Origin: an uncultured bacterium
Lineage (GTDB): Bacteria; Acidobacteriota; HRBIN11; JAKEFK01
Reading direction: 5' to 3'
Assembly (NCBI GenBank): GCA_963777505.1
Contig: CAVZQN010000004.1
Span: 1,575,814-1,639,813 of the forward strand
DNA: 64,000 nucleotides
The position numbers and the translations under genes were made by a program. Under the pieces are notes generated by a model. The model was not told where the DNA came from. It searched no databases and saw nothing but the letters and a program-made list of their open reading frames with translations. Shown piece after piece: positions 1,377 to 14,244 of this stretch (positions within the stretch are counted from its first letter, which is position 1; each line of letters begins with the position of its first letter).

Positions 1377-2189
1377 TTATTTCAGCAGGATGCCGACTTC
1401 CATTCCGCGCGCGGCTCCCAATGTTTTTGCGGCTGAACCTTGCGTTTGCGCAATTTCAAGGAAATCAGAACTGCCGAACAAAGCCAATAATTCACCTTTT
1501 TGGCCCTGAGCGTAATATTCTTTGAGTCCGTTAATCTCTTGTTTTCCTATTACTGTTTTGAATGTTTCACCCGGAATTTTTGATCGTACTTCGTCATAGT
1601 CGGTTCGTCTGATATTTGTGATCAGGTTTCCAAAACGATCCACATGAAGCACAGTCCCTTTCATCAATCCTTCACCAACGAGTTTCGGCTTCGGCAATGA
1701 GAGCCGCAAATAATTTTCTGTTGGTTCGCCAAAATTTTCTACAGCAGTCCCTTTCGTTAACCAGGCTGCGGCAGGCGCCATGATGTCACGCCCGTGAAAT
1801 GTCTTGCTTACATTATTAAGATAATAATGCTCAGTCGTAATTTCAGTGACCGATGATACGGTTTCAGCTTCATAAATCAACGATAGAACGCCGTTGTCAG
1901 GGGCGATGAAATAATAATTTTCAGTTGCTACGAGCAGAAGTTTTCGAGAAGACCCAACGGTAGGATCGACCACGACTATATGAATGGTGCGTGATGGAAA
2001 ATACGAATAACAGGACCTGAGCACAAACGATGCTTCAAGAATATCCTGAGCTGAGATGTCGTGACTGATATCAATGATCTGAACGTTGGAGTTGATATTC
2101 AGGATAACCCCTTTCATGCTGGGGACGTAACCATCACGTGTTCCGTAGTCGGTAAGAAGGGTAATTGTGGGAATTCGCTGAATTGCCAT
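1377..2189 (-). CDS. S-adenosyl-L-methionine hydroxide adenosyltransferase family protein (DUF62, fluorinase-like fold)
   Basis: 270 aa; N-terminal ITLLTDYG and HGRDIMAP motifs typical of this family; ATG confirmed at 2187-2189; 51 bp upstream of PBP gene on the same strand (operon-like). Confidence 0.7.
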   Translation of the reverse strand: MAIQRIPTITLLTDYGTRDGYVPSMKGVILNINSNVQIIDISHDISAQDILEASFVLRSCYSYFPSRTIHIVVVDPTVGSSRKLLLVATENYYFIAPDNGVLSLIYEAETVSSVTEITTEHYYLNNVSKTFHGRDIMAPAAAWLTKGTAVENFGEPTENYLRLSLPKPKLVGEGLMKGTVLHVDRFGNLITNIRRTDYDEVRSKIPGETFKTVIGKQEINGLKEYYAQGQKGELLALFGSSDFLEIAQTQGSAAKTLGAARGMEVGILLK

Positions 2190-2245
2190 CTTAAATAACC
2201 ATCAAACACTATCGAAAAAGACTTGAGGTGTCAACGAAGTGGTAG

Positions 2246-2272
2246 GGGCGGGTCTGAGACCCGCCCGTCTTT
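2246..2272 (+). terminator. Orphan intrinsic-terminator-like hairpin (GGGCGGGT-ctgag-ACCCGCCC followed by GTCTTTTC)
   Basis: Perfect 8-10 bp GC stem read directly; T-rich tract only on + strand although no + strand gene lies upstream in the window; the 10-mer GGGCGGGTCT recurs as a direct repeat at 2291-2300. Confidence 0.35.
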
Positions 2273-2321
2273 TCAACTCCACAATTGCGCGGGCGGGTCT
2301 AAAACCGCAAAGTCACAGAGC

Positions 2322-2356
2322 TTGACAGTATTACAGTAATTGTATATATTACTGTC
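2322..2356 (+). promoter_or_regulatory. Sigma70-like promoter (TTGACA-17bp-TATATT) giving a leaderless mRNA for the 2357 gene, with embedded palindromic operator
   Basis: TTGACA at 2322-2327, 17-nt spacer, TATATT at 2345-2350, ATG at 2357 only 6 nt after the -10; inverted repeat ACAGTAAT(2333-2340)/ATTACTGT(2348-2355) overlaps the -10. Confidence 0.5.
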
Positions 2357-2851
2357 ATGATCGAAAAAAGTTTGAATCTGGAAGAATTATCAAAGGAAGT
2401 TGAAGAACTTTTAGATCGACGCGGACTTTTAGACGTTCAACAAGATGGAAGGGTGTCGCCAATTCCTGATGCACGAACGATCCGTTATTACACAACGTTA
2501 GGATTGCTGGAACGTCCAAAAATTGTATTGCGCCAGGCTTCGTATGGGAAACGTCATGTCTTGCAGCTTCTTGCAATCAAATCGCTGCAAGGAATGTCGA
2601 TGCCGTTGGAAGAAATTCAGGCGCGACTTTATGGAAAAAGTGATCGTGAACTGGAAGCAATTCTGGAATCTATTTCAAACAAAAGAAAAGCACCCCGGAG
2701 CGAAATCAATCCGCTCGTTTGGCGTGAAATCATAATCGAGCCCGGACTAAAAATAATGGCTGAAGCAAAATGGCAACCTTCCGATGAAGAAGCTCTTGCA
2801 AAAAGAATTCGCGCAGCAGTTGCTGTATTTGCGAAGGAGGAAAAACAATGA
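2357..2851 (+). CDS. MerR-like helix-turn-helix regulatory protein (164 aa)
   Basis: Segment ARTIRYYTTLGLLERP...GKRHVLQLLAIKSLQGMSMPLEEIQARL resembles the MerR-family HTH/wing signature (TLRYYE-GLL...Y..L.fI.....G.sL.eI); stop overlaps start of next gene (ATGA at 2848-2851). Confidence 0.45.
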   Translation: MIEKSLNLEELSKEVEELLDRRGLLDVQQDGRVSPIPDARTIRYYTTLGLLERPKIVLRQASYGKRHVLQLLAIKSLQGMSMPLEEIQARLYGKSDRELEAILESISNKRKAPRSEINPLVWREIIIEPGLKIMAEAKWQPSDEEALAKRIRAAVAVFAKEEKQ

Positions 2852-5319
2852 CTACCCCCCAAATTCCAATCGTCGATCTGCCGGAAGACGATTGTACCCG
2901 TAGTTTCGGCGTATTAACTGTACAAAAAGCAGCACAGCGCATTGCTCTGCCACTCGAAAAGGTGGAAATTGATGCAAGAGTTGCCGGACAAATCGCGGAA
3001 GTTACAGTTCTGCAGTCTTTTCGAAACGAACATCAAGAAGCACTAGAAGCTGTATACATTTTTCCGCTTTCAGGAGGATCAGCAGTCAGCAGTTTCGAAA
3101 TGAAAGTAGGTTCACGTCTCCTTCGCGGCAAAGTGGAAGAGCGCGCACATGCGCGCCAGCAGTATGAAAATGCCATCCAGGATGGAAAGAGAGCAGCGTT
3201 GCTTGAACAAGAACGTGACGATGTTTTCACGCTTCAAGTTGGAAACATACTTCCTGGTGAACATGTTGAAATCAAGATCACCTATTCTGAACGTCTGCCA
3301 TTTTTTGAAAATGGAACGACTGAAATCCGGCTGCCGATGGTTGTTGCTCCAAGGTATGTTCCTGGAAGTCCGCTTGATTCCAGCGGAGTTGGGGATGGAA
3401 TTGAAGAAGATACCGATATTGTTCCAGATGCTTCCAGAATTTCTCCACCACGGTTGGCGAAAGGTTTTGATCCAAAAGTAGGCCTCAACATTCAGGTTGA
3501 ACTTTTGAGCGATGCAGCGATTCGAGAACTATCCTGCTCGCAACATGCGACCCGTACTTCAAATTCAGGAGGCAACGGAATCACTGTTTCGCTTTCCAGG
3601 ACCGACGAATTACTGAATCGTGATTTTGTGTTGCGATGGAACCTCGGTGAAAACAAAATCCAGACAGTTTTCCAAGGATACAAGTCAGAGCATGGCGATT
3701 ATTATGCGATGTTATCGATCCTTCCTCCGCAACTCGAACATCAATCCATTGCAGGACGTGATGTAGTTTTTATTGTGGATCGATCGGGATCGATGCGCGG
3801 TATAAAAATGGCTTCAGCATCCAAAGCATGTGCGATTTTGCTTTCAACGCTCGGACCCGCGGATCGTTTTGCAATTGCTTGCTTTAACACGGCCGTTAAA
3901 TGGTTTTATCCCAATGGTATGGATGGTCAGCGTTTTCTAACAGCCGATGAATCAGGTTTGAAACGTGGTGAAGCATTCTTGCGTGAAATAACAAGTGAAG
4001 GCGGTACAGAACTCGATCAAGCTCTGGAATCGGGTTTGGAAGTGATTCGCAGACGCAGTGATGACAGTACGCGTGTTCCAGTAGTTGTACTTTTGACCGA
4101 TGGACAAATCTCCGATGAGGCCCGCGTATTATCGCGGATCCAAAAAGAGGTTGGAGGTTCTCGTATTTTTACAGTTGGTATTGATACTGCAGTTAATCAT
4201 GGATTTTTGAGCCGTCTTGCTGCATTAGGAAAAGGAACATCCACATTCGTTGAACCAGGAGCGTCCTTAGATAATGCGCTACGGGCAATTAGCAGAGAAA
4301 TTGGAGCTCCAGTAATTGTAGATGTTAGCCTGAAGGATTTGGATTCAAACATAAATATGGAAACAATTTCACCCGCCCGAATTCCGGATCTATTTGCCGG
4401 ACGCTCCAGCGTCACTTTTTTTCAGATGAAGCAACCGGGGCGCATTCAGATCAATGGAAAATTCAGCGATGGAAGCAATTTCGAACAAACAATTTCTTCA
4501 GAAGTCACTCCGGTATCTGCAATTGCGCATTTGTGGGCTCGCGCACGAGTCAGGGATTTAGAAGATCAGTTCCGGCTCGAAAGTGGTCTGCAAGAGCAGA
4601 CAAAAAAGCAAATTATCGAAATTGCAATTCAGCATACATTACTGACGCGTTTTACAGCATTCGTAGTTGTTGATGAAAGCGAAGTTGTAAATCAGGATGG
4701 AACTCGAAGAAAAATTGTTCAACCAGTAGAAATGCCGGCCCAATGGGAAATGGATATGGGTTCTTCAATGCATATCACTGGAGCCATGGCGATGATGTCT
4801 TGTCCGCCGCCGCCGCAAGAAGCACGTGCTTCAGCACCAGTAGCGATGATGCAATTTGATGAAGGAACCAGACCTTCATCTTTATTGAAAGGGCTCTTCC
4901 GTAAACATCGCCGCGATGTGGATCCAAAACAGAAGCCTGCAGAATCAAAAGCGTTGAAAGATGCGGTCAAAGATTTTATGAATGCATTCGACAGCGTACA
5001 AAAATCCATAGAGTCAGGGCAGGTACCTTCAGGGAAACAACTTGAAAAGACACACAAGCAACTAATCAAGCTGATGACGGAGAGTGGTGAATATTCAGCG
5101 ATCAGACGTTTGCTGACTAGTATGGTCACAGAACTATTGACAGCTTTGCGAAGTCCAGGAATTGAAGTGTCAGCTTTGCGGAATATCTTGAATCAGAATA
5201 AGAAAACGATTGATGAAGCCTTTCGCGAAGTAAATGCAACGACAGCCGGCCCATTTCTGGGAATCAACCATTTGATCTCTGCGTCTTTGCGGTTTGTTGG
5301 CGAATTCTGTTACACTTGA
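2848..5319 (+). CDS. VIT-domain plus von Willebrand factor type A (vWA) domain protein, 823 aa, with Met/Pro-rich linker and C-terminal helical domain
   Basis: vWA MIDAS motif D-x-S-x-S in VVFIVDRSGSMRG, downstream LLTDGQISD, and TAFVVVDESEV motif typical of VIT-vWA proteins; N-terminal ~250 aa VIT-like; translationally coupled to the upstream HTH gene. Confidence 0.7.
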   Translation: MTTPQIPIVDLPEDDCTRSFGVLTVQKAAQRIALPLEKVEIDARVAGQIAEVTVLQSFRNEHQEALEAVYIFPLSGGSAVSSFEMKVGSRLLRGKVEERAHARQQYENAIQDGKRAALLEQERDDVFTLQVGNILPGEHVEIKITYSERLPFFENGTTEIRLPMVVAPRYVPGSPLDSSGVGDGIEEDTDIVPDASRISPPRLAKGFDPKVGLNIQVELLSDAAIRELSCSQHATRTSNSGGNGITVSLSRTDELLNRDFVLRWNLGENKIQTVFQGYKSEHGDYYAMLSILPPQLEHQSIAGRDVVFIVDRSGSMRGIKMASASKACAILLSTLGPADRFAIACFNTAVKWFYPNGMDGQRFLTADESGLKRGEAFLREITSEGGTELDQALESGLEVIRRRSDDSTRVPVVVLLTDGQISDEARVLSRIQKEVGGSRIFTVGIDTAVNHGFLSRLAALGKGTSTFVEPGASLDNALRAISREIGAPVIVDVSLKDLDSNINMETISPARIPDLFAGRSSVTFFQMKQPGRIQINGKFSDGSNFEQTISSEVTPVSAIAHLWARARVRDLEDQFRLESGLQEQTKKQIIEIAIQHTLLTRFTAFVVVDESEVVNQDGTRRKIVQPVEMPAQWEMDMGSSMHITGAMAMMSCPPPPQEARASAPVAMMQFDEGTRPSSLLKGLFRKHRRDVDPKQKPAESKALKDAVKDFMNAFDSVQKSIESGQVPSGKQLEKTHKQLIKLMTESGEYSAIRRLLTSMVTELLTALRSPGIEVSALRNILNQNKKTIDEAFREVNATTAGPFLGINHLISASLRFVGEFCYT

Positions 5320-5378
5320 AACGGACCAGACTCTACCGTTTCCGTTGTAAAACGACGCCACATCCTTGCTGATTTTTT

Positions 5379-8300
5379 ATGCCTGATTACTTGAAAGAAG
5401 CCAGAAAAGCTGAAAAAGAAAAAATCTTTTCGAGAGCGGGCGAATTCTACCGGCTTGCTGGAGAAATCGATTCTGCTGTTGAAATGTACATGAAGGCAGA
5501 AGACTACATTCTCGCCGCTGGTCTCATGGAACAAAAAGGCAACTGGAGTGCTGCTGCAAATCTGTATGAACGCGGCAGACAATACCGCGATGCTGCCAAG
5601 ATTTACGAAAAAATTAAAGACTATCGTTCCGCCTTTTCAATGTATGAAAAGATCAACGATTATCCACGTGCTTCAGAAATGGCGGAAAAAGCGGAAGATT
5701 ATTTCAAAGCTGCTGTTATGGCTGAAGAAGCAAAAACATTGCAACGTGCAGCACAACTTTATATTCAAGCCAACCAATATCCACAAGCTGCAAGAATTCA
5801 TTACAAATTATTGCAACAACTTGTCGATCTCACTGAAAAAAGGTTTTTTCCAGATTATGAGGCGCAACTCGCGAAGCATGCGAATACAACGGCGATGCTT
5901 TACGAACGGATTAATGATCATGCAAAAGCAGCCTACTGTTATCAACTTGCAAGAAATCATAAGAAAGCTGCAGAGTCGTATCTTGCAGATCAGAAACCTG
6001 AGAAAGCTGCAGAGATCTATCACCAGCTAAAGAGCTACAACAAAGCATTTGAGATTTTGTCAGGACTCACTGACGTTTCAAACAAGCCTCTTTTCGCGGA
6101 TGTTTGTTACCAGTTAAAGAAATTTGATAAAGCTGCAACTTTATTTCAGCAGTGCGGAAATCTTGGCCGCGCTGCTGATGCCTGTGAACAGGCAAAGCTT
6201 TATAACATCGCAGCTAAGATTTATGAAGAACTAGGAAATTTCAAACGTGCTGCAGAAATGTGTTTGAAGGCAAATAATAAGATTCGAGCGGCTGAACTTT
6301 ATGAAAAGACAGGAAACTTCGGCAACTCCGCAATTTTGTATCAGCAGTCCGGACAAAATGAAAAGGCATTGGAAAGCTATCTTGCGATCGGGCGAAGAAT
6401 TCCTGCCGCCAAAATCGCTCTTCAAATAAAAGATGAAGATAGAGCTATCTTTTTGCTTCAGGCAATTAATCCAATGGAAGAAGAATATAGAGATGCTTGT
6501 GCACTTCTTGGTGTAATTTTCGCTGAAAGAGGAATGAGTTCAGCGGCTCAGCGCAAGTTCGAAGAAGCATTGGAACGCCCCACGCTTACGAAGACAAATT
6601 TGGACATCTATTTTGATCTTGCGATGCAGCAGGAAAAAATGGGGATGCGTGCAGAAGCGGCCGACTTGTATGAGCGGATTCTTTCTGTGGATTTTTCGCA
6701 CAAGGAAGCTTCACGCCGCCTTGAAGAGTTACGAAGATCGGCTGTTTACCATATTCCGGATACATTTTACGTGCCCCAGCCTTCAGAAAGTGTCGAAAAC
6801 ATTCAGACATCCGGACAACCTCGAATTGTGGCATCGCGTTATGAGTTGGTGGAAGAAATGATTCATGATGCTTCGGGGAAAGTATATAAAGCCAGCGATC
6901 AATTTTTTCAACGTCCTGTCATGATCCGGATTCTTCCGAAGCAGGATCAAAATCTTACACAGGTGATTCTAAAATGCACTCAACTTTCATCGGCACTCAA
7001 CCACAATAACATTCTCGCAATTTATGATGGTGGGAAAGATAAAGATGATTACTTTGTTTGTACCGAATATGTAGACGGTCAAACTCTGCGGCAGTATCTT
7101 TCGGATCATTCTTTGAATATTCAGGAAGTTGTTCAAATTGCGCAACAGATTATTTTGGCCCTTGCGTATGTTCATAAGAAGGGTCTAATTCATGGAAATC
7201 TGACGCCGGAAAATATTTATATTGCAGCCGACAAAAGTGTAAAGGTCACTAATTTTGGAAATCTTGCAGTATGGGAAAAACAAAATGCGGCTGTTGTTAA
7301 GCAATACTTAAGTCCGGAACAGCTTACGGATCAGACTTCTGATGAGCGAAGTGACGTCTATTCGTTCGGGATTATTTTGTATGAGCTTGCCTATGGCAAT
7401 CCTCCTTTTTCGGGCGTGGATGTAGAACAACAACATTTGAGTGCTCTTCCTGTATTTGAAGAAACTCCTTTACACACTGTCCCGGATTTTCTGATCCGAA
7501 TTATGAAGAAGAGCCTTGCAAAGGATCGAAACAGACGTTACGCAAATGCGGATGAAATCCAAAATGAGTTTGAAACACCGGGAATCACACCAGGCGTTGT
7601 TATCAATGGCAGATATGAAATTGTCCGTGAACTTGGCGAAGGCGGTATGGGAAATGTTTATCAAGCGCGGGACAGGGACCTGGATGAAATCGTTGCATTA
7701 AAAATGTTGAAGGGGGAGATCGGCGGTGATCCTGATATGCTTCAACGTTTCATTCGTGAAATCAAAGTCGCAAGAATGATTGCTCATCCAAATGTAGTAC
7801 GCGTTTTTGATACCGGGACATACGAAGCAAATCGATACATAACGATGGAATATATCGATGGCATCAGTTTTGACCGATGGATCGATCAATCTAGAGAGAT
7901 CGATCTGAAAACTCGACTCAACATTTTGTTGAAAATCATTCAAGGCGTTCAAGCCGCTCATGCCCGTGGCATCGTTCATCGTGATTTGAAGCCTCAAAAT
8001 ATTTTGATTGATTCCGACTTCATTCCTCACATTCTCGATTTTGGAATTTCACGAGTACGAACTCACAAAGATAGTTCAACGACAGCCAAAATTGTACTTG
8101 GTTCACCAAAATATACATCTCCGGAACAAATCAGCGGACAGGAGGCGGATTATCGCAGCGATATTTATTCGCTTGGAGTCCTTACTTTCTACATGTTAAC
8201 GTTTCAAGAACCTTTCAGCGGAGATGATGTCCAGAGTATTTTGATGAAACACCTAACTTTGGAGCCTGCTTCGCCCCGCCACTTGAATCCTGAAATTCCA

Positions 8301-8420
8301 CTCTGGCTCGAAGATATTGTTCTTCGCGCGTTACGAAAAGATCCCGCCAAACGTTTCGAAAACCTCGATGAAATGCTCGCCGACCTCAAATTCGGCATCG
8401 ACTTCAAGCAAAACTCATAA
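5379..8420 (+). CDS. Multidomain signalling protein: N-terminal array of TPR-like ~19-residue helical repeats, a degenerate (pseudo)kinase domain, and a canonical Ser/Thr protein kinase domain (1013 aa)
   Basis: C-terminal domain has LGEGGMGNVY, VALKML, HRDLKPQNIL, DFGISR, SPKYTSPE. The preceding domain has VMIRIL (K to R), HGNLTPENIY (HRD to HGN) and TNFG (DFG to NFG). N-terminal 350 aa are periodic Y-x-x-A-A-x-x-Y-E-K-type repeats. Confidence 0.8.
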   Translation: MPDYLKEARKAEKEKIFSRAGEFYRLAGEIDSAVEMYMKAEDYILAAGLMEQKGNWSAAANLYERGRQYRDAAKIYEKIKDYRSAFSMYEKINDYPRASEMAEKAEDYFKAAVMAEEAKTLQRAAQLYIQANQYPQAARIHYKLLQQLVDLTEKRFFPDYEAQLAKHANTTAMLYERINDHAKAAYCYQLARNHKKAAESYLADQKPEKAAEIYHQLKSYNKAFEILSGLTDVSNKPLFADVCYQLKKFDKAATLFQQCGNLGRAADACEQAKLYNIAAKIYEELGNFKRAAEMCLKANNKIRAAELYEKTGNFGNSAILYQQSGQNEKALESYLAIGRRIPAAKIALQIKDEDRAIFLLQAINPMEEEYRDACALLGVIFAERGMSSAAQRKFEEALERPTLTKTNLDIYFDLAMQQEKMGMRAEAADLYERILSVDFSHKEASRRLEELRRSAVYHIPDTFYVPQPSESVENIQTSGQPRIVASRYELVEEMIHDASGKVYKASDQFFQRPVMIRILPKQDQNLTQVILKCTQLSSALNHNNILAIYDGGKDKDDYFVCTEYVDGQTLRQYLSDHSLNIQEVVQIAQQIILALAYVHKKGLIHGNLTPENIYIAADKSVKVTNFGNLAVWEKQNAAVVKQYLSPEQLTDQTSDERSDVYSFGIILYELAYGNPPFSGVDVEQQHLSALPVFEETPLHTVPDFLIRIMKKSLAKDRNRRYANADEIQNEFETPGITPGVVINGRYEIVRELGEGGMGNVYQARDRDLDEIVALKMLKGEIGGDPDMLQRFIREIKVARMIAHPNVVRVFDTGTYEANRYITMEYIDGISFDRWIDQSREIDLKTRLNILLKIIQGVQAAHARGIVHRDLKPQNILIDSDFIPHILDFGISRVRTHKDSSTTAKIVLGSPKYTSPEQISGQEADYRSDIYSLGVLTFYMLTFQEPFSGDDVQSILMKHLTLEPASPRHLNPEIPLWLEDIVLRALRKDPAKRFENLDEMLADLKFGIDFKQNS

Positions 8421-8482
8421 GATTTTAGATTTCAGATCACTGATTTCAGATTGAAATTGAAAAATTGAAGATTGCTAGAGCG
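8421..8482. repeat. Terminal inverted repeat R1 of IVS-like cassette (GATTTCAGATT-rich, ~55 bp)
   Basis: gattttagatttcagatcactgatttcagattgaaattgaaaaattgaagattg; its reverse complement matches R2 (8876-8935) at about 85% identity. Confidence 0.75.
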
Positions 8483-8487
8483 TTTTT

Positions 8488-8841
8488 TTATTTCGATAGC
8501 TTCGATGTTTTTATGGAAGATACGAATATGGAAACAAGTTCATTTCCCTCAACAATTAATGATCTTAATAAAGACTCATTAAGGATTTTGCATTCGATAA
8601 TAATCTCCATCCAATAAAGAGATTCATCCGCTTCTTCCAAAACAATTCCCAGTTTTGAGATAAAATCCACTTTTGAACGTGCTCGACAAGCTGCACGATA
8701 ATTTGCTCCCACGGACGTTCCGGACCGAAAAAGCTGATCACCCACGCGTCGTGCTTCATATGAATTCGGCAGAGCTCTGCATAGTCTTAGGATGCGCTTC
8801 CCGTATTCTTTTGTTCGTCTCTTCATCTCTTGTTGATTCAT
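8488..8841 (-). CDS. Four-helix-bundle protein (TIGR02436; 23S rRNA intervening-sequence protein family)
   Basis: SGTSVGANYRAACRARSKVDFISKLGIVLEEADESLYWMEII matches the family signature; start moved to internal ATG (8839-8841) because the track ORF 5' end runs into repeat R2; flanked by inverted repeats R1/R2. Confidence 0.75.
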   Translation of the reverse strand: MNQQEMKRRTKEYGKRILRLCRALPNSYEARRVGDQLFRSGTSVGANYRAACRARSKVDFISKLGIVLEEADESLYWMEIIIECKILNESLLRSLIVEGNELVSIFVSSIKTSKLSK

Positions 8842-8875
8842 ATACCAACCTTCTCTCAATCTTTCAATCCTCAAT

Positions 8876-8935
8876 TTCAATCTGAAATCTAGAATCTGAA
8901 ATCTTAAATAATTGAACCGCAAAGTCACGGAGTTC
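8876..8935. repeat. Terminal inverted repeat R2 of IVS-like cassette
   Basis: caatctttcaatcctcaatttcaatctgaaatctagaatctgaaatcttaaataa is the reverse complement of R1. Confidence 0.75.
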
Positions 8936-8952
8936 TTTGCGTCTTTGCGGTT
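8915..8952. repeat. Hairpin formed by two inverted copies of the recurrent motif (AACCGCAAAG ... CTTTGCGGTT, 10-bp stem)
   Basis: aaccgcaaagtcacggagttctttgcgtctttgcggtt read directly; overlaps the 3' end of the DUF2851 CDS. Confidence 0.6.
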
Positions 8953-10388
8953 GGATTAAATTCGCAGCGGGAGCAGGAAGCATCGCGGTTATCGCAAAAG
9001 TCGTAAAAGAAGTGATGGAGCGCTTGTTGCCGGTGTGCGCTGTCAATCATGTTTCTTGCTTTCTCCGGGCTCCCAAACATCCGATGAACCATCAGACGTG
9101 TAATGCTGTTGTTAGGCAGTTTTGGATGACGTCTATAGATTGCATGGAGAGAATCTTCGAGCCCTCGTTGTGAAGTGAGCTCTGCATGCGCTAACAACAA
9201 TGGAAGCACGACATTTACGATCAGGATCCGCGCGCGATCCTTTCCGATCAATCTGCGAGGTGCGCTGAATTTGTGCTTATCGAATTGATAATGGTATGAC
9301 CAATACAAATGCGATGGACGTCCAAACAAGGCATTCCACGATTTGAGTATTTCGCGAATTCCGCGAGGCGATGGAAAAGGTTCGCCGATAGGGTGGAGTA
9401 ACAATGGAATGATTTGTCCAGAATGGTAATGAAAAAATGATGCAACAGCAGTGAGCCTGCGTGCAGGGAAGTTTGCCGGACGTGTACTTGAGGGATACCA
9501 ACAAAACCCGGTGAGTATTCGCGATTGAAAATGGGATTCGTGTTTATGCCAGTATTGAAAAAGCTCGTTTAGATACCACGACGTTTCAGGATCTTCCGGA
9601 GTTAAACGGATCTGTGATAAGTCTTCGATCAATCCCGCAGTACCAAGTAATATCGCAGCCATTGAATCGATACCGCGCCGACCCGCAAAATTGTAATGCA
9701 TCAATTCATCAATCGGAATTCTTTGGGCAAGCTCACGGAATGCATATCGAGATTGCTTATATCCCATGCCTTCCATGATGCCTTCATAAAAAGCTTGCTG
9801 AAATGTTTGCGATCGAAGTGCCGTCAGATATCGTTCCTTTTTTCGGCGCATTCGAAGATCGCCTGCTGAATCCAATATTCGTGTGATGGATAGTTCATCA
9901 TGCTCTTCCAGAAATCGTCTGCAAAGATGTACTTTGCTTCCTGCATGAAATGGAAATTCATGAATCGGCAATCGTGTCTGCAGCAGCCTTAACTCTTCCA
10001 TCAATGAATCTTTTAATTCCAGTTCAGGAACCGACTCTCCATTCTGTTTGATACATTCCGCGCCTGTGCTGTACAAAACAACGTGAAGAACAACGCTGTT
10101 GTAACGTGGATCCAGATGGTGCCGGTGTTGATACCATTCACCGCTGCTTAAATGAATTTCAACATCACCACACATCCGTTTTCCATCAACAAACAATTCT
10201 GCATTTCGAAAGTCCGGGCCTGCTTCAAGATTCCACCAACCTGGCGATGATATCGATAACGCTGTGCCGTTCAGGCGCAATTGTTTCCGGAAGAGTTGTT
10301 CAGACCAGATGCAATGGATTAAACGTTCAAGGACGCGTTCGCGTCCACCATAGGGGTTTTGCGATTCGCAGACGAGATAAGGTTCCAT
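8925..10388 (-). CDS. DUF2851-family protein (487 aa)
   Basis: N-terminal ERLIHCIWSEQLF...PGWWNLEAGPDF...GDVEIHLSSGEWYQHRHHLDPRYNSVVLHVVL pattern recalled for DUF2851; assignment from memory only. Confidence 0.5.
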   Translation of the reverse strand: MEPYLVCESQNPYGGRERVLERLIHCIWSEQLFRKQLRLNGTALSISSPGWWNLEAGPDFRNAELFVDGKRMCGDVEIHLSSGEWYQHRHHLDPRYNSVVLHVVLYSTGAECIKQNGESVPELELKDSLMEELRLLQTRLPIHEFPFHAGSKVHLCRRFLEEHDELSITRILDSAGDLRMRRKKERYLTALRSQTFQQAFYEGIMEGMGYKQSRYAFRELAQRIPIDELMHYNFAGRRGIDSMAAILLGTAGLIEDLSQIRLTPEDPETSWYLNELFQYWHKHESHFQSRILTGFCWYPSSTRPANFPARRLTAVASFFHYHSGQIIPLLLHPIGEPFPSPRGIREILKSWNALFGRPSHLYWSYHYQFDKHKFSAPRRLIGKDRARILIVNVVLPLLLAHAELTSQRGLEDSLHAIYRRHPKLPNNSITRLMVHRMFGSPEKARNMIDSAHRQQALHHFFYDFCDNRDASCSRCEFNPTAKTQRTP

Positions 10389-10469
10389 CGTTTGCCTCCT
10401 GTTTTGGCAAACGGTGGAGGATGGTAGGAAGTTACCCGCACTAGGATTTTACCACAAAGACACGGCCTA

Positions 10470-10660
10470 CGGCCGCAATTTCAGATTTCAGATCTTAGAT
10501 TTCAGATTGAAATTGATGATTTTTGGATTTAAGTACAGGTTAATTCTACTTTATGTGAGCAGACCGAATTAAGGCTTAAAAAGAATCTAATAGCTTCTAT
10601 CAATCTTCAATCAAAAATTTCAATCTGAAATCTAAGATCTGAAATCTAAAATCTATTGGA
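10470..10660. mobile_element. MITE-like empty element: inverted repeats R3 (10470-10530) and R4 (10598-10660) of the same GATTTCAGATT family flanking a 76-bp non-coding core
   Basis: 33-bp core caatttcaatctgaaatctaagatctgaaatct is identical between rc(R3) and R4; no ORF between them; sits in the DUF2851 / radical-SAM intergenic region. Confidence 0.6.
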
Positions 10661-12023
10661 CTTGGAGTTTGGCGTAGGAGGGTGAACTGCCGCAGCTTTC
10701 AAACCATTCGAGGCCTTCACACACCATATCAAATTTCAGCCAGTACTGGCCGGGTGAGTTTACGGCGGGAACTTGAAAATCAAGACGCAATGCTTGTCCT
10801 GAAGGAAGAGCCTTTGGAAGCAAAGCACGTCCGAAGTTGCGGTTAATCATGCTACGGTTGCGATCTAACAATGAAATTCCGAGAGTGATATGTCTTCGAT
10901 TCGTGCGTGAAGTGTTTTTCCAGAGTGCCCCGCCGGCATTAAGAATTTCTGCGCTTGTAGTAAACGATTGGCCGGCTTTGACTTTCAATGCTGCAATCTC
11001 CGGACGTATTTCGGCTTTTAATGCTTTTTCGTGGATTGCATTTCCTAAAGCGCTCCAGATTTCATGCTGAATCTTTTCATATTCAGGGCGTCCCGGAACA
11101 AACCTTTCGGAAGCTGAATTTTCAGGATGATCTGTAATTTCCCAGCATAAACGATCGATTCCAAGTTCACCTGCAAGTTTTCGTGCAAGATCCATCTCTT
11201 CATCAGTGTCGTTCCAACGAAACAAAATGTAACGCCAGTTGATGAACGGCGTATCGGAGTTCAGTTCATGTTTGATTTCCACAAAGCGCTTCAGGATGCG
11301 CATCAATTTATCGAAATCGCCTCCACGCCTGTAACGCACATATGATTCTTGCATGGCCCCATCGATCGAGAAAGTAATTTCATCAATCCCTGATTTCGTA
11401 AGAGCGCGCAGTTTTTCATCCGTGTTTAGCAGCAATCCATTAGTGCTTGTAAAAAGATAAATCTGAGGATATCGAGATTTTGCATATTCGATCATTTCGA
11501 TCGCGCGTGGATGGATGAAACTTTCACCGTAATTAAAGAAGTCAATGCGCTGAAGTCCCGGTCCAAGCTCATCAATTACTTTTGTGAAAGTGTCATAATT
11601 CAAGAGCCGGATCGATCGCGTAAAATGGATTCCATTTTCATGATTGCAACAAGCTTCAAAACAGGAAAGATTGCAGGAGACACAAGGCTCTACGAATAAA
11701 CGCTGAGGCATATAGGCAAGCGAGGTGCCATCAGGTAATTTCACTGCAGGATCGGATGCAACTCCCATCAAGTTGCAATGGGTGCAAAGTACGGGATTAT
11801 TTTTATGCAGACCCTCACGCAATCCACGAAACACCGGACCATTCCAAATTTCTTTAATGCTCAAGATCGATGCATTGCCAGCCGGACGCTTTTTGAATGG
11901 ATCGGCACAACCACAAACGATCGTTCCATCTGACATTAATGTGACCGTCTCCCATGGCCATGTACAAAAGAAACGCTGGCCTGGTTGAAGATCGATTTGA
12001 GAGGGTTCTTCGGTTCCTATCAT
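10653..12023 (-). CDS. Radical-SAM-like protein with N-terminal SPASM-like Cys-rich domain and non-canonical Cys cluster (456 aa)
   Basis: N-terminus FFCTWPWETVTLMSDGTIVCGC...GNASILSIKEIWNGP...CTHCN resembles a SPASM/twitch domain. The core has CVSCNLSCFEACC (not CxxxCxxC) and FNYGESFIHP (GGEP-like). The C-terminal ~100 aa are unassigned. 4-nt overlap with the upstream deacetylase gene. Confidence 0.5.
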   Translation of the reverse strand: MIGTEEPSQIDLQPGQRFFCTWPWETVTLMSDGTIVCGCADPFKKRPAGNASILSIKEIWNGPVFRGLREGLHKNNPVLCTHCNLMGVASDPAVKLPDGTSLAYMPQRLFVEPCVSCNLSCFEACCNHENGIHFTRSIRLLNYDTFTKVIDELGPGLQRIDFFNYGESFIHPRAIEMIEYAKSRYPQIYLFTSTNGLLLNTDEKLRALTKSGIDEITFSIDGAMQESYVRYRRGGDFDKLMRILKRFVEIKHELNSDTPFINWRYILFRWNDTDEEMDLARKLAGELGIDRLCWEITDHPENSASERFVPGRPEYEKIQHEIWSALGNAIHEKALKAEIRPEIAALKVKAGQSFTTSAEILNAGGALWKNTSRTNRRHITLGISLLDRNRSMINRNFGRALLPKALPSGQALRLDFQVPAVNSPGQYWLKFDMVCEGLEWFESCGSSPSYAKLQVQ

Positions 12024-13414
12024 TTTTGAATTGTTGCTACGTTTGGCAGGAGATCCTGGCGATCGATGAGTTGACTTGCCGAAATAAGCTCATAACCGCG
12101 TTGACGAAAAGTCTGGATAATTTCGGGAAGCCATTTATCGACACGATCTTCCGGTTGACGTTGAGTTCCCAGGTGCATCAGTACAATAGCTCCATTTGTT
12201 TGAGCCGCTTCATTGTGCCCAAAACTTAAAATACGGTCTTTGATTAACATTGCAGGAAAATAATTTGCATAACTTGAATTTGGCACCCAATCCAGGCTGT
12301 CCATATTTTGGCGAGTCTTTGGATCGGATGTCCATGCAACGTGAACGAACCCGAGCTCGGCAGCCCAACGCCGAATTTCGAGATTATGCTCTCCGTAAGG
12401 CGCGCGCCACAAAGGCACCATTCGTTTGCCAGTCGTAAGATAGAACAATTCATCCGTTTTACGCAACTGCATCTGAAGATCTTCGCGCGTGAGCATAGGA
12501 GAAGTTTTCTGCTGTGAATCCGTTGCAAATGTTGTGAGATGGTCATGGCTGAAAGTATGATTGCCAACTTCATGCTCTGAAGCGATACGCCGCGACATTT
12601 CAGGAAATTTTTGAATGAACTCCCCGGTGAGGAAAATCGTGGAACGCACATTATGTTTTTTCAGTGCATTAAGAATCGATTCCGCTGAATTTGCCTCTGA
12701 GCCTCCGTCAAACGTGAGAACAATCTCTTTCCGATTGATGTTTCCGCGCGAAATATTGTCCGGTGAATTTTGGAAAAACTTCCAATTTGCGCTGTCAGAC
12801 TTTATTGAATCCTGATACAGAACCATAATGGCTGGAGAAAAATTTGAAGATCCATCATCATCATAGAATCGGGTCTGCAGTACATTTGCATGTTTCGTTA
12901 GCATGACTTTTGGGAAGCGATACAGCGTGTTGCGTGCTACCGTGCTTTCTACAAGTGATCCGTTCAGGTAAACGGCAACTACAGCATTTGCCGGAGCCGA
13001 GCCTTCTACCTCGACGAACTGAGAAGCGCTCTTCATCCCATTGATTGGCCGCGTAATATTAATCCCATCAGCCTTATCGTCAGCTTTTTCCAGGTCAATA
13101 GGCAGTGACGGTGTCATGAGATCAGGTTGTTGATGCTGACTTCCACCGGAATAAAAAGCGTCTGCAAGCAGGCCGAAATAAACAAAACCTGCCGCTAAAA
13201 CTACCAGCGAAGCATATATTGCATATCGACCATAATTGCGGGTGGGTGTAGCCGTCGCATTCTTTTGCAAATATGTTTTATGACAGAGGTCTCCGCAAAA
13301 TAAATGATGATCCAGGCTAATCTGGCATTGCGGACAAAGCGCGCGACCACATTCAAAGCACTTACGGCGCGCAATACGTGACGGATGTTTAAAACAAAAC
13401 CTAGGCTCGTTCAT
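12020..13414 (-). CDS. Polysaccharide deacetylase (CE4/NodB-homology) with N-terminal zinc-ribbon and one TM segment (464 aa)
   Basis: N-terminal CFECGRALCPQCQ...CGDLCH Cys pairs and a TM helix (YAIYASLVVLAAGFVYFGLL). NodB motifs LTFDGGSE, HTFSHDH and LWRAPYG. Confidence 0.7.
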   Translation of the reverse strand: MNEPRFCFKHPSRIARRKCFECGRALCPQCQISLDHHLFCGDLCHKTYLQKNATATPTRNYGRYAIYASLVVLAAGFVYFGLLADAFYSGGSQHQQPDLMTPSLPIDLEKADDKADGINITRPINGMKSASQFVEVEGSAPANAVVAVYLNGSLVESTVARNTLYRFPKVMLTKHANVLQTRFYDDDGSSNFSPAIMVLYQDSIKSDSANWKFFQNSPDNISRGNINRKEIVLTFDGGSEANSAESILNALKKHNVRSTIFLTGEFIQKFPEMSRRIASEHEVGNHTFSHDHLTTFATDSQQKTSPMLTREDLQMQLRKTDELFYLTTGKRMVPLWRAPYGEHNLEIRRWAAELGFVHVAWTSDPKTRQNMDSLDWVPNSSYANYFPAMLIKDRILSFGHNEAAQTNGAIVLMHLGTQRQPEDRVDKWLPEIIQTFRQRGYELISASQLIDRQDLLPNVATIQK

Positions 13415-13518
13415 CTCCGAAAAAGTCAGAACAAATTATGGGATGTTCATACTATCAATGTCAAACGCCTCGACGGACTATTGACTTGCCTCATTCCCGG
13501 GATTACCCTCAAAAAAAG

Positions 13519-14244
13519 ATGTATATTGTTTCACTTGTTTCATTCATGGTCATAATGTTTGCATGTGCAGGAAATCCCGATGGTTCAGGCCAAGCTGTCT
13601 CCGTGGAGGAACTTCGTAAATTGCGCCAAAACATGGTGAATCGTCAAATTATTGCCCGCGGCGTGAAAGATCCCCTTGTTCTGGAAGCGATGGATAAGGT
13701 GGAACGTCACCAATTCGTTTTGCCCGGTCAAGAACGTCAAGCTTATGATGATGGACCTCTTTCGATCGGTGAAGGCCAAACAATCTCTCAACCTTATATC
13801 GTTGCAATTATGACCGAGCTTGCGAAAATTGGTCCGGAATCAAAAGTTCTTGAAATTGGAACAGGTTCCGGCTATCAAGCTGCAATTCTTGGAGAGATTG
13901 CTAAGGAAGTTTATTCCATTGAAATCATTGAATCGCTAGGTTTGCGTTCGCAAAACCTTTTGCAACGTCTTGGTTATGAAAATGTGAAAGTTCGAATTGG
14001 TGATGGTTATAAGGGTTGGCCGGATGAAGCACCTTTTGATGCGATTGTAGTAACTGCTGCTCCGGATCATGTTCCTCAGCCGCTTGTTGATCAACTAAAA
14101 ATCGGTGGACGCCTCGTGATTCCTGTTGGAGAACTTTATCAGGAACTTGAAGTCATCACTAAAACGGCTAAAGGCACGGAACGCAACAAAATTATTCCAG
14201 TGCGATTCGTCCCGATGACCGGCGAAGCTGAACAAGATAACTAA
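13519..14244 (+). CDS. pcm: Protein-L-isoaspartate O-methyltransferase
   Basis: ISQPYIVAIM, VLEIGTGSGYQAA and VVTAAPDHVPQPLVDQLKIGGRLVIPVG motifs; start moved to ATG at 13519 (signal-peptide-like MYIVSLVSFMVIMFACAG). Confidence 0.85.
   Translation: MYIVSLVSFMVIMFACAGNPDGSGQAVSVEELRKLRQNMVNRQIIARGVKDPLVLEAMDKVERHQFVLPGQERQAYDDGPLSIGEGQTISQPYIVAIMTELAKIGPESKVLEIGTGSGYQAAILGEIAKEVYSIEIIESLGLRSQNLLQRLGYENVKVRIGDGYKGWPDEAPFDAIVVTAAPDHVPQPLVDQLKIGGRLVIPVGELYQELEVITKTAKGTERNKIIPVRFVPMTGEAEQDN

Follow-up and report, generated by a model that had tools for sequence, protein, structure and literature searches.

Small regulators of the MerR family and proteins that combine a VIT domain with a von Willebrand factor A (vWA) domain have been described in several settings. 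Here, we compare them with a pair of overlapping genes, coding for a MerR-like helix-turn-helix (HTH) protein and a VIT-vWA protein, on contig CAVZQN010000004.1 of an uncultured acidobacterium. The whole stretch of 64,000 nucleotides that was analysed is referred to as the window, and the gene pair with its upstream control element as the cassette. Classical MerR-type regulators activate transcription by distorting DNA, a mode of activation that needs a promoter spacer of 19-20 bp. TnrA and GlnR of Bacillus are small members of the family and are controlled by the binding of glutamine synthetase. CvkR (Alr3614), from type V-K CRISPR-associated transposons (CAST) of cyanobacteria, is a MerR-type classical repressor with a leaderless mRNA and a short ACA-containing palindrome, and by structure it stands apart from the other MerR regulators as a separate subfamily (PMC9938897).

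To our knowledge, no function has been assigned to the VIT domain in any organism. Anantharaman, Iyer and Aravind are said to have described, in 2012, the TerY-P triad, which consists of the vWA protein TerY, a Ser/Thr kinase, and a PP2C phosphatase. Closer in architecture to the vWA protein of the cassette are the inter-alpha-trypsin inhibitor heavy chains (ITIH proteins) and the intracellular eukaryotic VIT-vWA proteins VWA5A (BCSC-1), PARP4, and Dictyostelium Vwa1. VWA5A and Vwa1 are cytosolic (PMC10539598), as the cassette protein is predicted to be, and the VIT-vWA core of the ITIH-like architecture is predicted to form a 6_3 knot (bioRxiv 10.1101/2023.06.16.545156). In bacteria, LT3126 of the betaproteobacterium Limnobacter thiooxidans is a cytosolic VIT-VWA protein of 708 aa with a conserved metal ion-dependent adhesion site (MIDAS). 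Its gene is near-silent basally and strongly induced by gamma rays, heat, and oxidants, and its overexpression protects cells; the paper mentions no MerR neighbour (bioRxiv 10.64898/2026.05.23.727404).

We favour, with moderate confidence, the reading that the locus in the window is a self-contained, tightly auto-repressed MerR-like/VIT-vWA cassette, followed by kinase and IVS genes that are unrelated to it. The parts belong to known families, and the pair would join a dedicated repressor to its regulated partner. What is unusual is that a leaderless promoter-operator, nearly invariant across phyla, precedes a bacterial, apparently cytosolic, ITIH-like output protein. Databases label the two proteins only as 'MerR family regulator' and 'VIT and VWA domain-containing protein', and a description of the pair was not found in the searchable literature, a coverage that ends at subscription journals. 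The parts of the cassette in the window are as follows.

2322-2356, plus strand: leaderless promoter/operator, with the -35 TTGACA at 2322-2327, a 17-bp spacer, and the -10 TATATT at 2345-2350
2325-2330, 2333-2338, and 2350-2355, plus strand: half-sites read from the sequence, ACAGTA, ACAGTA, and inverted TACTGT, respectively
2357-2851, plus strand: MerR-family winged-HTH gene, 164 aa
2834-2840, plus strand: Shine-Dalgarno sequence AAGGAGG of the vWA gene, 7 nt 5' of the ATG at 2848 and within the 3' end of the MerR-like gene
2848-5319, plus strand: VIT-vWA gene as printed, 823 aa, with an ATGA overlap with the MerR-like gene at 2848-2851
5241, plus strand: extra G causing a +1 frameshift in the vWA gene, detected by alignment with two relatives (L005 and L006), both in frame

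A first-pass annotation, made from the letters of the window, had read these two genes and a kinase gene downstream as a three-gene operon. The three plus-strand open reading frames (ORFs) were confirmed at 2357-2851, 2848-5319, and 5379-8420, with the ATGA overlap, and its domain calls agree with Pfam, which returns MerR_1 for the first protein, VIT and vWA for the second, and TPR-like repeats with two kinase stretches for the third, one of these a pseudokinase by its motifs. The operon itself was borne out in part: the HTH-vWA pair is conserved (76/78 loci), and the adjacency of the kinase is found only in close relatives. Co-conservation of the HTH, VIT-vWA, and Ser/Thr kinase genes had been named beforehand as a check that could refute the reading, and only the first two were found to be kept together.

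Homologues of the vWA protein number in the thousands, with 2601 at E<=1e-10 among the candidates scored. The pairing was surveyed in genomes, with one genome scanned per species. The best 80 of 411 loci were kept, all from metagenome-assembled genomes (MAGs) of Acidobacteriota, Melainabacteria/Obscuribacterales, Cyanobacteria, Planctomycetota, Myxococcota, Armatimonadota, Elusimicrobia, Blackallbacteria, and others. Upstream sequence makes 78 of the 80 loci, from about eight phyla, informative for the pairing, and in 76 of these the MerR-like gene immediately precedes the vWA gene. Four relatives are referred to by locus number below; their vWA proteins share 98% (L005), 89% (L006), 59% (L007), and 57% (the acidobacteria-like L001) identity with that of the window. 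Neighbourhoods were compared for three distant homologues, from L001, an Armatimonadetes MAG, and an Oculatellaceae cyanobacterium; all that they have in common is a MerR_1 gene of ~170-185 aa with a 4-nt overlap between its stop and the vWA start. The adjacency is also seen in L001-L004. Of 72 loci, 62 have the vWA start placed -17 to +4 nt from the MerR-like stop, and 53 carry a Shine-Dalgarno-like motif ahead of that start. Overlap and internal Shine-Dalgarno sequence together suggest translational coupling between the two genes. All-against-all clustering of the flanking ORFs in the 80 loci gave no third conserved gene beyond lineage synteny; the clusters consist of shadow ORFs on the vWA gene and of Obscuribacterales synteny (2-oxoacid dehydrogenase acyltransferase, patatin, and response regulator).

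The cultured actinomycete Nonomuraea gerenzanensis carries a diverged pair, in which a MerR-like protein of 274 aa is encoded with a VIT-vWA protein of 814 aa (39% identical) and the genes once more overlap by 4 nt. This pair lies at 5880-9188 of locus L089 (NZ_LT559118.1), and its upstream element, TTGACAGTGTAATAGTGACAGTGTCA, has ACAGTG direct repeats at a different spacing. Some loci depart from the simple pair. A second, tandem VIT-vWA paralogue with its own promoter/operator and no second MerR-like gene is present at L008 (4639-7450), L042 (10458-13766), and L046 (11680-14665), and L032 has two vWA genes in tandem. At L016 (7854) and L023 (7680) the operator lies directly 5' of a vWA gene that has no adjoining MerR-like gene; the regulator of these two loci may be encoded elsewhere.

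The promoter of the pair, TTGACA-17-TATATT, is the best sigma-70 match in the scanned range 2100-9100 (11/12), and the ATG begins 7 nt after its -10, in agreement with the earlier call of a leaderless HTH gene. Read from the sequence, the MerR-like mRNA is predicted to have neither a 5' leader nor a Shine-Dalgarno sequence. The first direct half-site overlaps the -35, and the inverted half-site covers the -10/+1 junction. Positions 2333-2355 form the perfect palindrome ACAGTAAT-N7-ATTACTGT, the single such site in 64 kb. The conservation of this element was discovered because over-extended MerR-like ORFs aligned upstream of the start codon (..LDSxTVIxxNTVM), which pointed to conservation at the DNA level. 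The operator consensus is TTGACAG-N4-ACAGTAAT-N7/8-ATTACTGT-N-ATG, and the 38 nt that end at the start codon, cTTGACAG-yAT-kACAGTAAT-N7/8-(A)ATACTGT-y-ATG, differ little between any of the phyla.

A loose DNA pattern for the operator, run on 1.40 Mb of loci and the window, matches 74 sites (66 unique), as compared with ~0.4 expected by chance on a rough estimate. All sites are on the gene strand, directly 5' of a MerR-like or VIT-vWA gene. TTGACA was demanded by the pattern, hence its constancy among the sites is not independent evidence. Positions outside the pattern are also kept (G7 in 51/55, T10 in 53/55, A17 in 51/55, T29 in 53/55, and A36 in 55/55), and the -10 keeps the form TAnAAT across the sites even though no -10 was demanded. 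The ATG stands exactly 1 nt past CTGT and 7 nt past the -10 in 54 of the 66 unique sites, and in most of the others the start codon is only three nucleotides further on. The start codon coincides with the predicted +1, and the HTH gene is therefore predicted to be expressed without a leader across phyla. It is rare for a promoter to stay almost unchanged in distant phyla with its start codon kept at +1, and such conservation is usually the sign of a tightly controlled response, SOS and heat-shock operators being examples. A scan of metagenome contigs by the DNA motif alone, which took in only the minor, 35-nt spacing class, gave 4 matches; a MerR-like gene follows in 4/4, and a vWA gene as well where the contig is long enough. 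The operator pattern has no match in viral contigs.

The 164-aa protein matches Pfam MerR_1 (E 9.7e-9) and has a MerR-type N-terminal winged HTH (wHTH). In the predicted fold, an insert parts helix 1 (residues 8-21) from the remaining HTH, and the wHTH is followed by a short helix (96-110), a conserved beta-hairpin (122-136), and a C-terminal helix. About 45 conserved residues trail the HTH, and neither Pfam nor NCBIfam identifies a C-terminal effector-binding domain (metal, drug, or redox) beyond it. Since there is no recognisable ligand-binding domain, the signal probably reaches the HTH protein by protein contact. GlnR and TnrA are among the closest structures in the fold search. The protein family is large: a profile of the MerR-like protein collects 1660 clusters (50% identity) at E<=1e-10 in 1.84 billion representatives.

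By these properties the HTH protein would behave more like CvkR or TnrA/GlnR than like a classical MerR. A classical MerR combines an over-long spacer with an effector domain, whereas the cassette has a 17-bp spacer, in the window and in the main class of sites alike, and its HTH protein has no effector domain. The likeness to CvkR lies in a small MerR-type wHTH protein expressed from a predicted leaderless mRNA, and a role as repressor would extend it. TnrA and GlnR, despite their similar folds, are not encoded beside or coupled to their partner, unlike the cassette HTH protein. Their half-sites have another orientation and sequence, and the cassette protein adds the N-terminal insert and a C-terminus of beta-hairpin and helix. 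The inner palindrome GTAAT-N7-ATTAC shares the 5-N7-5 geometry of the TnrA box.

In the 823-aa protein, Pfam locates VIT at residues 36-146 (E 1.7e-36) and VWA at 305-467 (VWA_3/VWA/VWA_2). The chain is organized as VIT, a conserved loop (165-209), vWA with MIDAS, beta domains, a linker, and a C-terminal helical bundle (697-799). The MIDAS residues D311, S313, S315, T387, and D418 are complete and invariant in the family alignment, and the Met/Pro-rich linker that the first-pass annotation had pointed out (residues 624-696) is predicted to be disordered. Family members are 45-60% identical across phyla, with many invariant columns, and 71 of the 78 full-length homologues end in the motif FWxx[STN][IV]-COOH. 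The vWA protein has neither a signal peptide or hydrophobic N-terminus nor a transmembrane-like segment (maximum KD19 1.4). Hydrophobic segments are likewise absent from the HTH and kinase proteins, and all three proteins are predicted to be cytosolic.

The conserved loop at residues 165-209 (window 3340-3474; VVAPRYxPG...GDG.E.DTDxVPDASRI[ST]PPR) ranks with the best-conserved stretches of the family, and it has predicted local distance difference test (pLDDT) values of 30-49 in the AlphaFold2 (AF2) model despite this conservation; it could be an interaction loop or a portion of the predicted knot. Obscuribacterales versions of the protein (L014, L046, P0094, and P0118) reach 1100-1170 aa through long, low-complexity insertions rich in Pro, Ala, Gly, and Trp in the linker ahead of the C-terminal helical bundle.

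Foldseek places ITIH1 (6fpy) first, with E 7.7e-33, and the two proteins have in common a VIT and a vWA domain with MIDAS, followed by beta and helical domains. Identity to ITIH and the eukaryotic VIT-vWA proteins is 17%, and the cassette protein is bacterial and paired with an HTH protein. Its C-terminal helical bundle and FWxx[ST][IV] tail are its own, and unlike ITIH proteins it has no signal peptide. The best NCBIfam match, TIGR03788 (marine proteobacterial sortase target), covers residues 39-637 with 447.9 bits, below the cut-off of 551.65. The cores are homologous and the C-termini differ, the cassette protein ending in FWxx[ST][IV]; it has no hydrophobic segment that could serve as a membrane-spanning sorting signal, a statement that does not extend to an LPXTG-type motif, which was not searched for. 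The expression pattern of LT3126 fits a logic of tight repression and burst as proposed below for the cassette, a comparison made by description.

The copy of the vWA gene in the window is frameshifted near its end. The extra G at 5241 swaps the conserved ...HFWESTI-COOH for FLGINHLISASLRFVGEFCYT, and the final ~25 codons of the ORF as printed result from the frameshift. In the corrected frame, 5243-5275 read QPAHFWESTI*, and the authentic stop is probably 5273-5275. Because of this stop, the gap to the kinase ATG is ~103 bp and not the 59 bp reported earlier. The extra G is either an assembly error or a real lesion.

On these grounds the cassette may work as follows. The HTH and vWA genes would be transcribed into one leaderless mRNA from the near-consensus sigma-70 promoter, which should be strong on its own, since consensus hexamers stand at the optimal 17-bp spacing. 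The HTH protein would bind the ACAGTA half-sites over the -35, the spacer, the -10, and +1 and repress its own promoter by occlusion; occlusion is the most likely mode, given a spacer of the optimal 17 bp where MerR-type activators have 19-20 bp. The vWA protein would be the regulated output, translated via the overlapping stop and start and the internal Shine-Dalgarno sequence. Two features point to the vWA gene as the target: L016, L023, and the paralogues at L008, L042, and L046 carry their own operator, and the operators sampled sit only at the cassette and at vWA paralogues. Once the repressor is removed, the strong promoter would deliver a burst of vWA protein, which may act as a protein-binding factor through its intact MIDAS and its tethered FWxx[ST][IV] tail. 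The input to the HTH protein may be a protein contact, possibly with the vWA protein itself, the obvious candidate, in the way that glutamine synthetase acts on TnrA/GlnR.

Several points weigh against this reading. In the predicted monomer model the helix after the wHTH has 15 residues (96-110), and coiled-coil dimerisation in the MerR style is uncertain for the HTH protein. The outer ACAG/CTGT elements are separated by about two helical turns, an unusual distance for a single MerR dimer, and another factor could bind the operator in place of the HTH protein. The frameshifted vWA gene may be impaired in the window, or the sequence may be wrong. Lastly, the kinase gene may be co-transcribed with the cassette in this lineage, as the hairpin between them is weak and the scan gave no promoter for the kinase.

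A wider proposal, which we regard as tentative and rather doubtful in its full form, is that the pair is an undescribed stress- or damage-inducible system present across phyla, in which the repressor silences a knotted vWA protein until a signal arrives and the vWA protein, a protective factor, feeds back through MIDAS or tail contacts. If true, the pair would be the first tractable bacterial model for the intracellular function of VIT-vWA proteins such as VWA5A, PARP4, and Vwa1, and its regulon-defining box would join the few operators conserved across phyla (LexA, CIRCE, and HAIR boxes). The cassette makes the function of the VIT domain testable: its operator is defined, its consensus sigma-70 promoter should be active in E. 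coli, and a diverged version is carried by a cultured organism, Nonomuraea gerenzanensis.

The features downstream of the cassette, and the dispersed repeats that resemble repetitive extragenic palindromic (REP) elements around it, are as follows.

5379-8420, plus strand: TPR-pseudokinase-kinase gene, 1013 aa
8488-8928, minus strand: 23S-rRNA-IVS-protein gene (Pfam PF05635), coding for a four-helix bundle
8422-8909, minus strand: IVS cassette with 70-nt inverted repeats (8422-8491 and 8840-8909) that are 76% complementary
2303-2316, plus strand: REP-like copy AACCGCAAAGNCRC just 5' of the promoter, belonging to the genome and not to the cassette
5279-5294, no strand assigned: REP-like copy and small hairpin with a T-rich tail (repeat 5281-5294 on the minus strand; stem 5279-5292), directly 3' of the authentic vWA stop
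8915-8952, no strand assigned: REP-like pair forming a hairpin, which closes the block of kinase and IVS genes

The 1013-aa protein has two Pkinase stretches (E 1.1e-90) and TPR-type repeats in Pfam. TPR/SNAP/clathrin-like helical repeats (1-470) are followed by a pseudokinase (~480-735) and a Hanks-type Ser/Thr kinase (746-994). The first kinase domain is taken as a pseudokinase because of its motifs VMIR, HGNLTPEN, and NFG; the second has GEGGMG, VALK, HRDLKPQN, and DFG and is predicted to be an active Ser/Thr kinase. The Stk1/PknB model NF033483 (score 516) exceeds its cut-off only by summing the two kinase-like stretches; PASTA and transmembrane segments were not found in the protein, and the Stk1/PknB architecture is not matched.

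An orthologue of the kinase gene lies 3' of the vWA gene only in L005 and L006, and a homologue of its TPR region is present at 0/80 genome loci, L007 included. L007 has no kinase. L001 has neither the kinase nor the IVS gene, and its vWA gene runs directly into a convergent DUF2851 gene. Generic Ser/Thr kinases occur in 16 loci at varied positions and orientations. Only that of L014, a plain 522-aa kinase, follows the vWA gene immediately and on the same strand; a further one, the kinase-AAA16-TPR (STAND-like) protein of L023, is encoded on the same strand 1.2 kb downstream. Orthologues of the window's kinase (41-43% identity, same architecture) lie in another setting, HEAT-UbiD-kinase-DUF4412-AlaX, which includes neither a MerR nor a vWA gene. 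At L087 (4085-11953) and L088 (3996-11850) this string consists of a HEAT-repeat protein, a UbiD-family decarboxylase, the kinase, DUF4412, and an AlaX-like editing protein, and the kinase and DUF4412 genes overlap or are ~10 nt apart. The HEAT-UbiD-DUF4412 string may be the real functional context of the kinase.

By this comparative evidence, the kinase is a neighbour in this lineage only and no part of the conserved unit. The kinase and IVS block (~5295-8915) is bracketed by REP-like AACCGCAAAGNCRC copies; the simplest reading of the sequences is that it was inserted here or was lost in the sister lineage. The gap between the vWA and kinase genes holds the REP-like hairpin at 5279-5294, which may be a weak terminator or an insertion boundary, and L007 has a similar element 3' of its vWA stop. 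The kinase as part of the unit was a false lead and is now removed. A TerY-P-like system of three genes was rejected on the neighbourhood evidence, that is, on L001, the 80 loci, and the contexts of the kinase orthologues.

Could the kinase nonetheless work with the vWA protein in this lineage? The first-pass annotation had pictured the vWA protein as cooperating with the Ser/Thr kinase in a TerY-P-like module without a phosphatase, a claim that we do not sustain, as the kinase is not co-conserved and the vWA protein is ITIH-like. A narrower version, with a kinase that is co-transcribed here and phosphorylates or docks the vWA protein in a TerY-P- or ArnB-ArnC/D-like module, is in our view improbable. 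By one route, the TPR-like repeats would bind the FWxx[ST][IV] tail of the vWA protein. As in TerY-P, the vWA gene adjoins a Ser/Thr kinase gene in the window; the two are on the same strand, ~103 bp apart, with only a weak hairpin and no detected promoter between them. The adjacency is kept in the relatives with 89% and 98% identical vWA proteins, unrelated Ser/Thr kinases lie downstream on the same strand in L014 and L023, and the vWA model is structurally similar to ArnB, a kinase-regulated vWA protein. These points are to be set against the missing TPR-region homologue (0/80 loci), the lack of the kinase in L001 and L007, and the separate context that the orthologous kinases keep elsewhere, which leave the module no comparative support. 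A REP-like repeat also parts the genes. TerY is a short, stand-alone vWA protein, and the 823-aa VIT-vWA protein matched no TerY model. The absence of a phosphatase, noted earlier, holds for the neighbours at 1377-14244, with no PP2C gene, and no PP2C or FHA gene is recorded within ~10 kb in the 98% relative.

A role in conflict is likewise improbable. The pair would then be a toxin-antitoxin or anti-phage system, with a small auto-repressor encoded first and a larger effector or sensor released on infection. The gene order does resemble that of type II toxin-antitoxin loci (small HTH gene first, overlapping genes, operator over the promoter) and also of repressor-guarded defence; horizontal transfer of the cassette would fit the patchy spread over distant phyla, in which the promoter moves with the genes; and one locus adjoins a PIN-MazE pair and an AAA ATPase. 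However, PADLOC gives no match for the MerR-like protein and only a noise-level match for the vWA protein (its kinase matches, PD-T4-6 and Mad6, reflect a generic kinase domain), the operator pattern has no match in viral contigs and the MerR-like protein none in phage records, and the sole match in the plasmid collection is an 11.85-Mb Nonomuraea replicon labelled as a plasmid, evidently a chromosome. No toxic or enzymatic domain is recognisable in the vWA protein, no defence gene was found to recur among the neighbours in the 80 loci, and the high conservation and stable position in syntenic relatives are unlike those of fast-diversifying defence genes. Less probable still is that the inverted repeat acts in RNA, with transcription starting upstream and a ACAGUAAU/AUUACUGU hairpin by the AUG controlling translation. 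An 8-bp perfect palindrome does end 1 nt 5' of the ATG, and element positions 16 and 30 change together in some loci (such as L025, L034, L037, L040, and L053), but an operator for a dimeric protein predicts symmetric changes equally. The arms are conserved in sequence, many one-sided changes disrupt the pairing, and a hairpin would have no use for the third, direct half-site over the -35. The spacing from the -35 to the -10 is kept at exactly 17 bp, and that from the -10 to the ATG at 7 nt, which fits a promoter and not a transcribed leader. An auto-repressed MerR-like/VIT-vWA cassette is the reading that we retain.

The genes around the three ORFs have no relation to signalling. Upstream is a SAM hydroxide adenosyltransferase gene. 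Downstream, beyond the 23S-rRNA-IVS protein, genes for DUF2851, a radical-SAM/SPASM enzyme, and a polysaccharide deacetylase lie on the minus strand, followed by a divergent PCMT gene (8925-13414). The string DUF2851-radical SAM-deacetylase-PCMT is kept in L001, L005, and L006, and the radical-SAM and deacetylase genes overlap by 4 nt. In L001, which has these same downstream genes, SAM_HAT is ~5.6 kb upstream, and YfhO, DUF6311, and others lie between it and the cassette. The mobile-looking IVS cassette noted in the first pass was recovered as a PF05635 gene between 70-nt inverted repeats. In L005, the 98% relative, the IVS-protein gene is present as fragments without a Pfam match, and the unit looks like a small mobile or indel-prone cassette.

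The inverted repeats at 2303 and 5281 were considered as ends of the MerR-like/VIT-vWA cassette and rejected, as they are copies of a dispersed REP-like repeat. The window contains 15 copies of AACCGCAAAGNCRC, against 0.11 expected, starting at 2303, 5281, 8915, 8939, 14252, 28829, 32629, 35780, 37057, 39056, 41162, 42521, 50149, 60849, and 62189. The copies are intergenic and often paired into hairpins.

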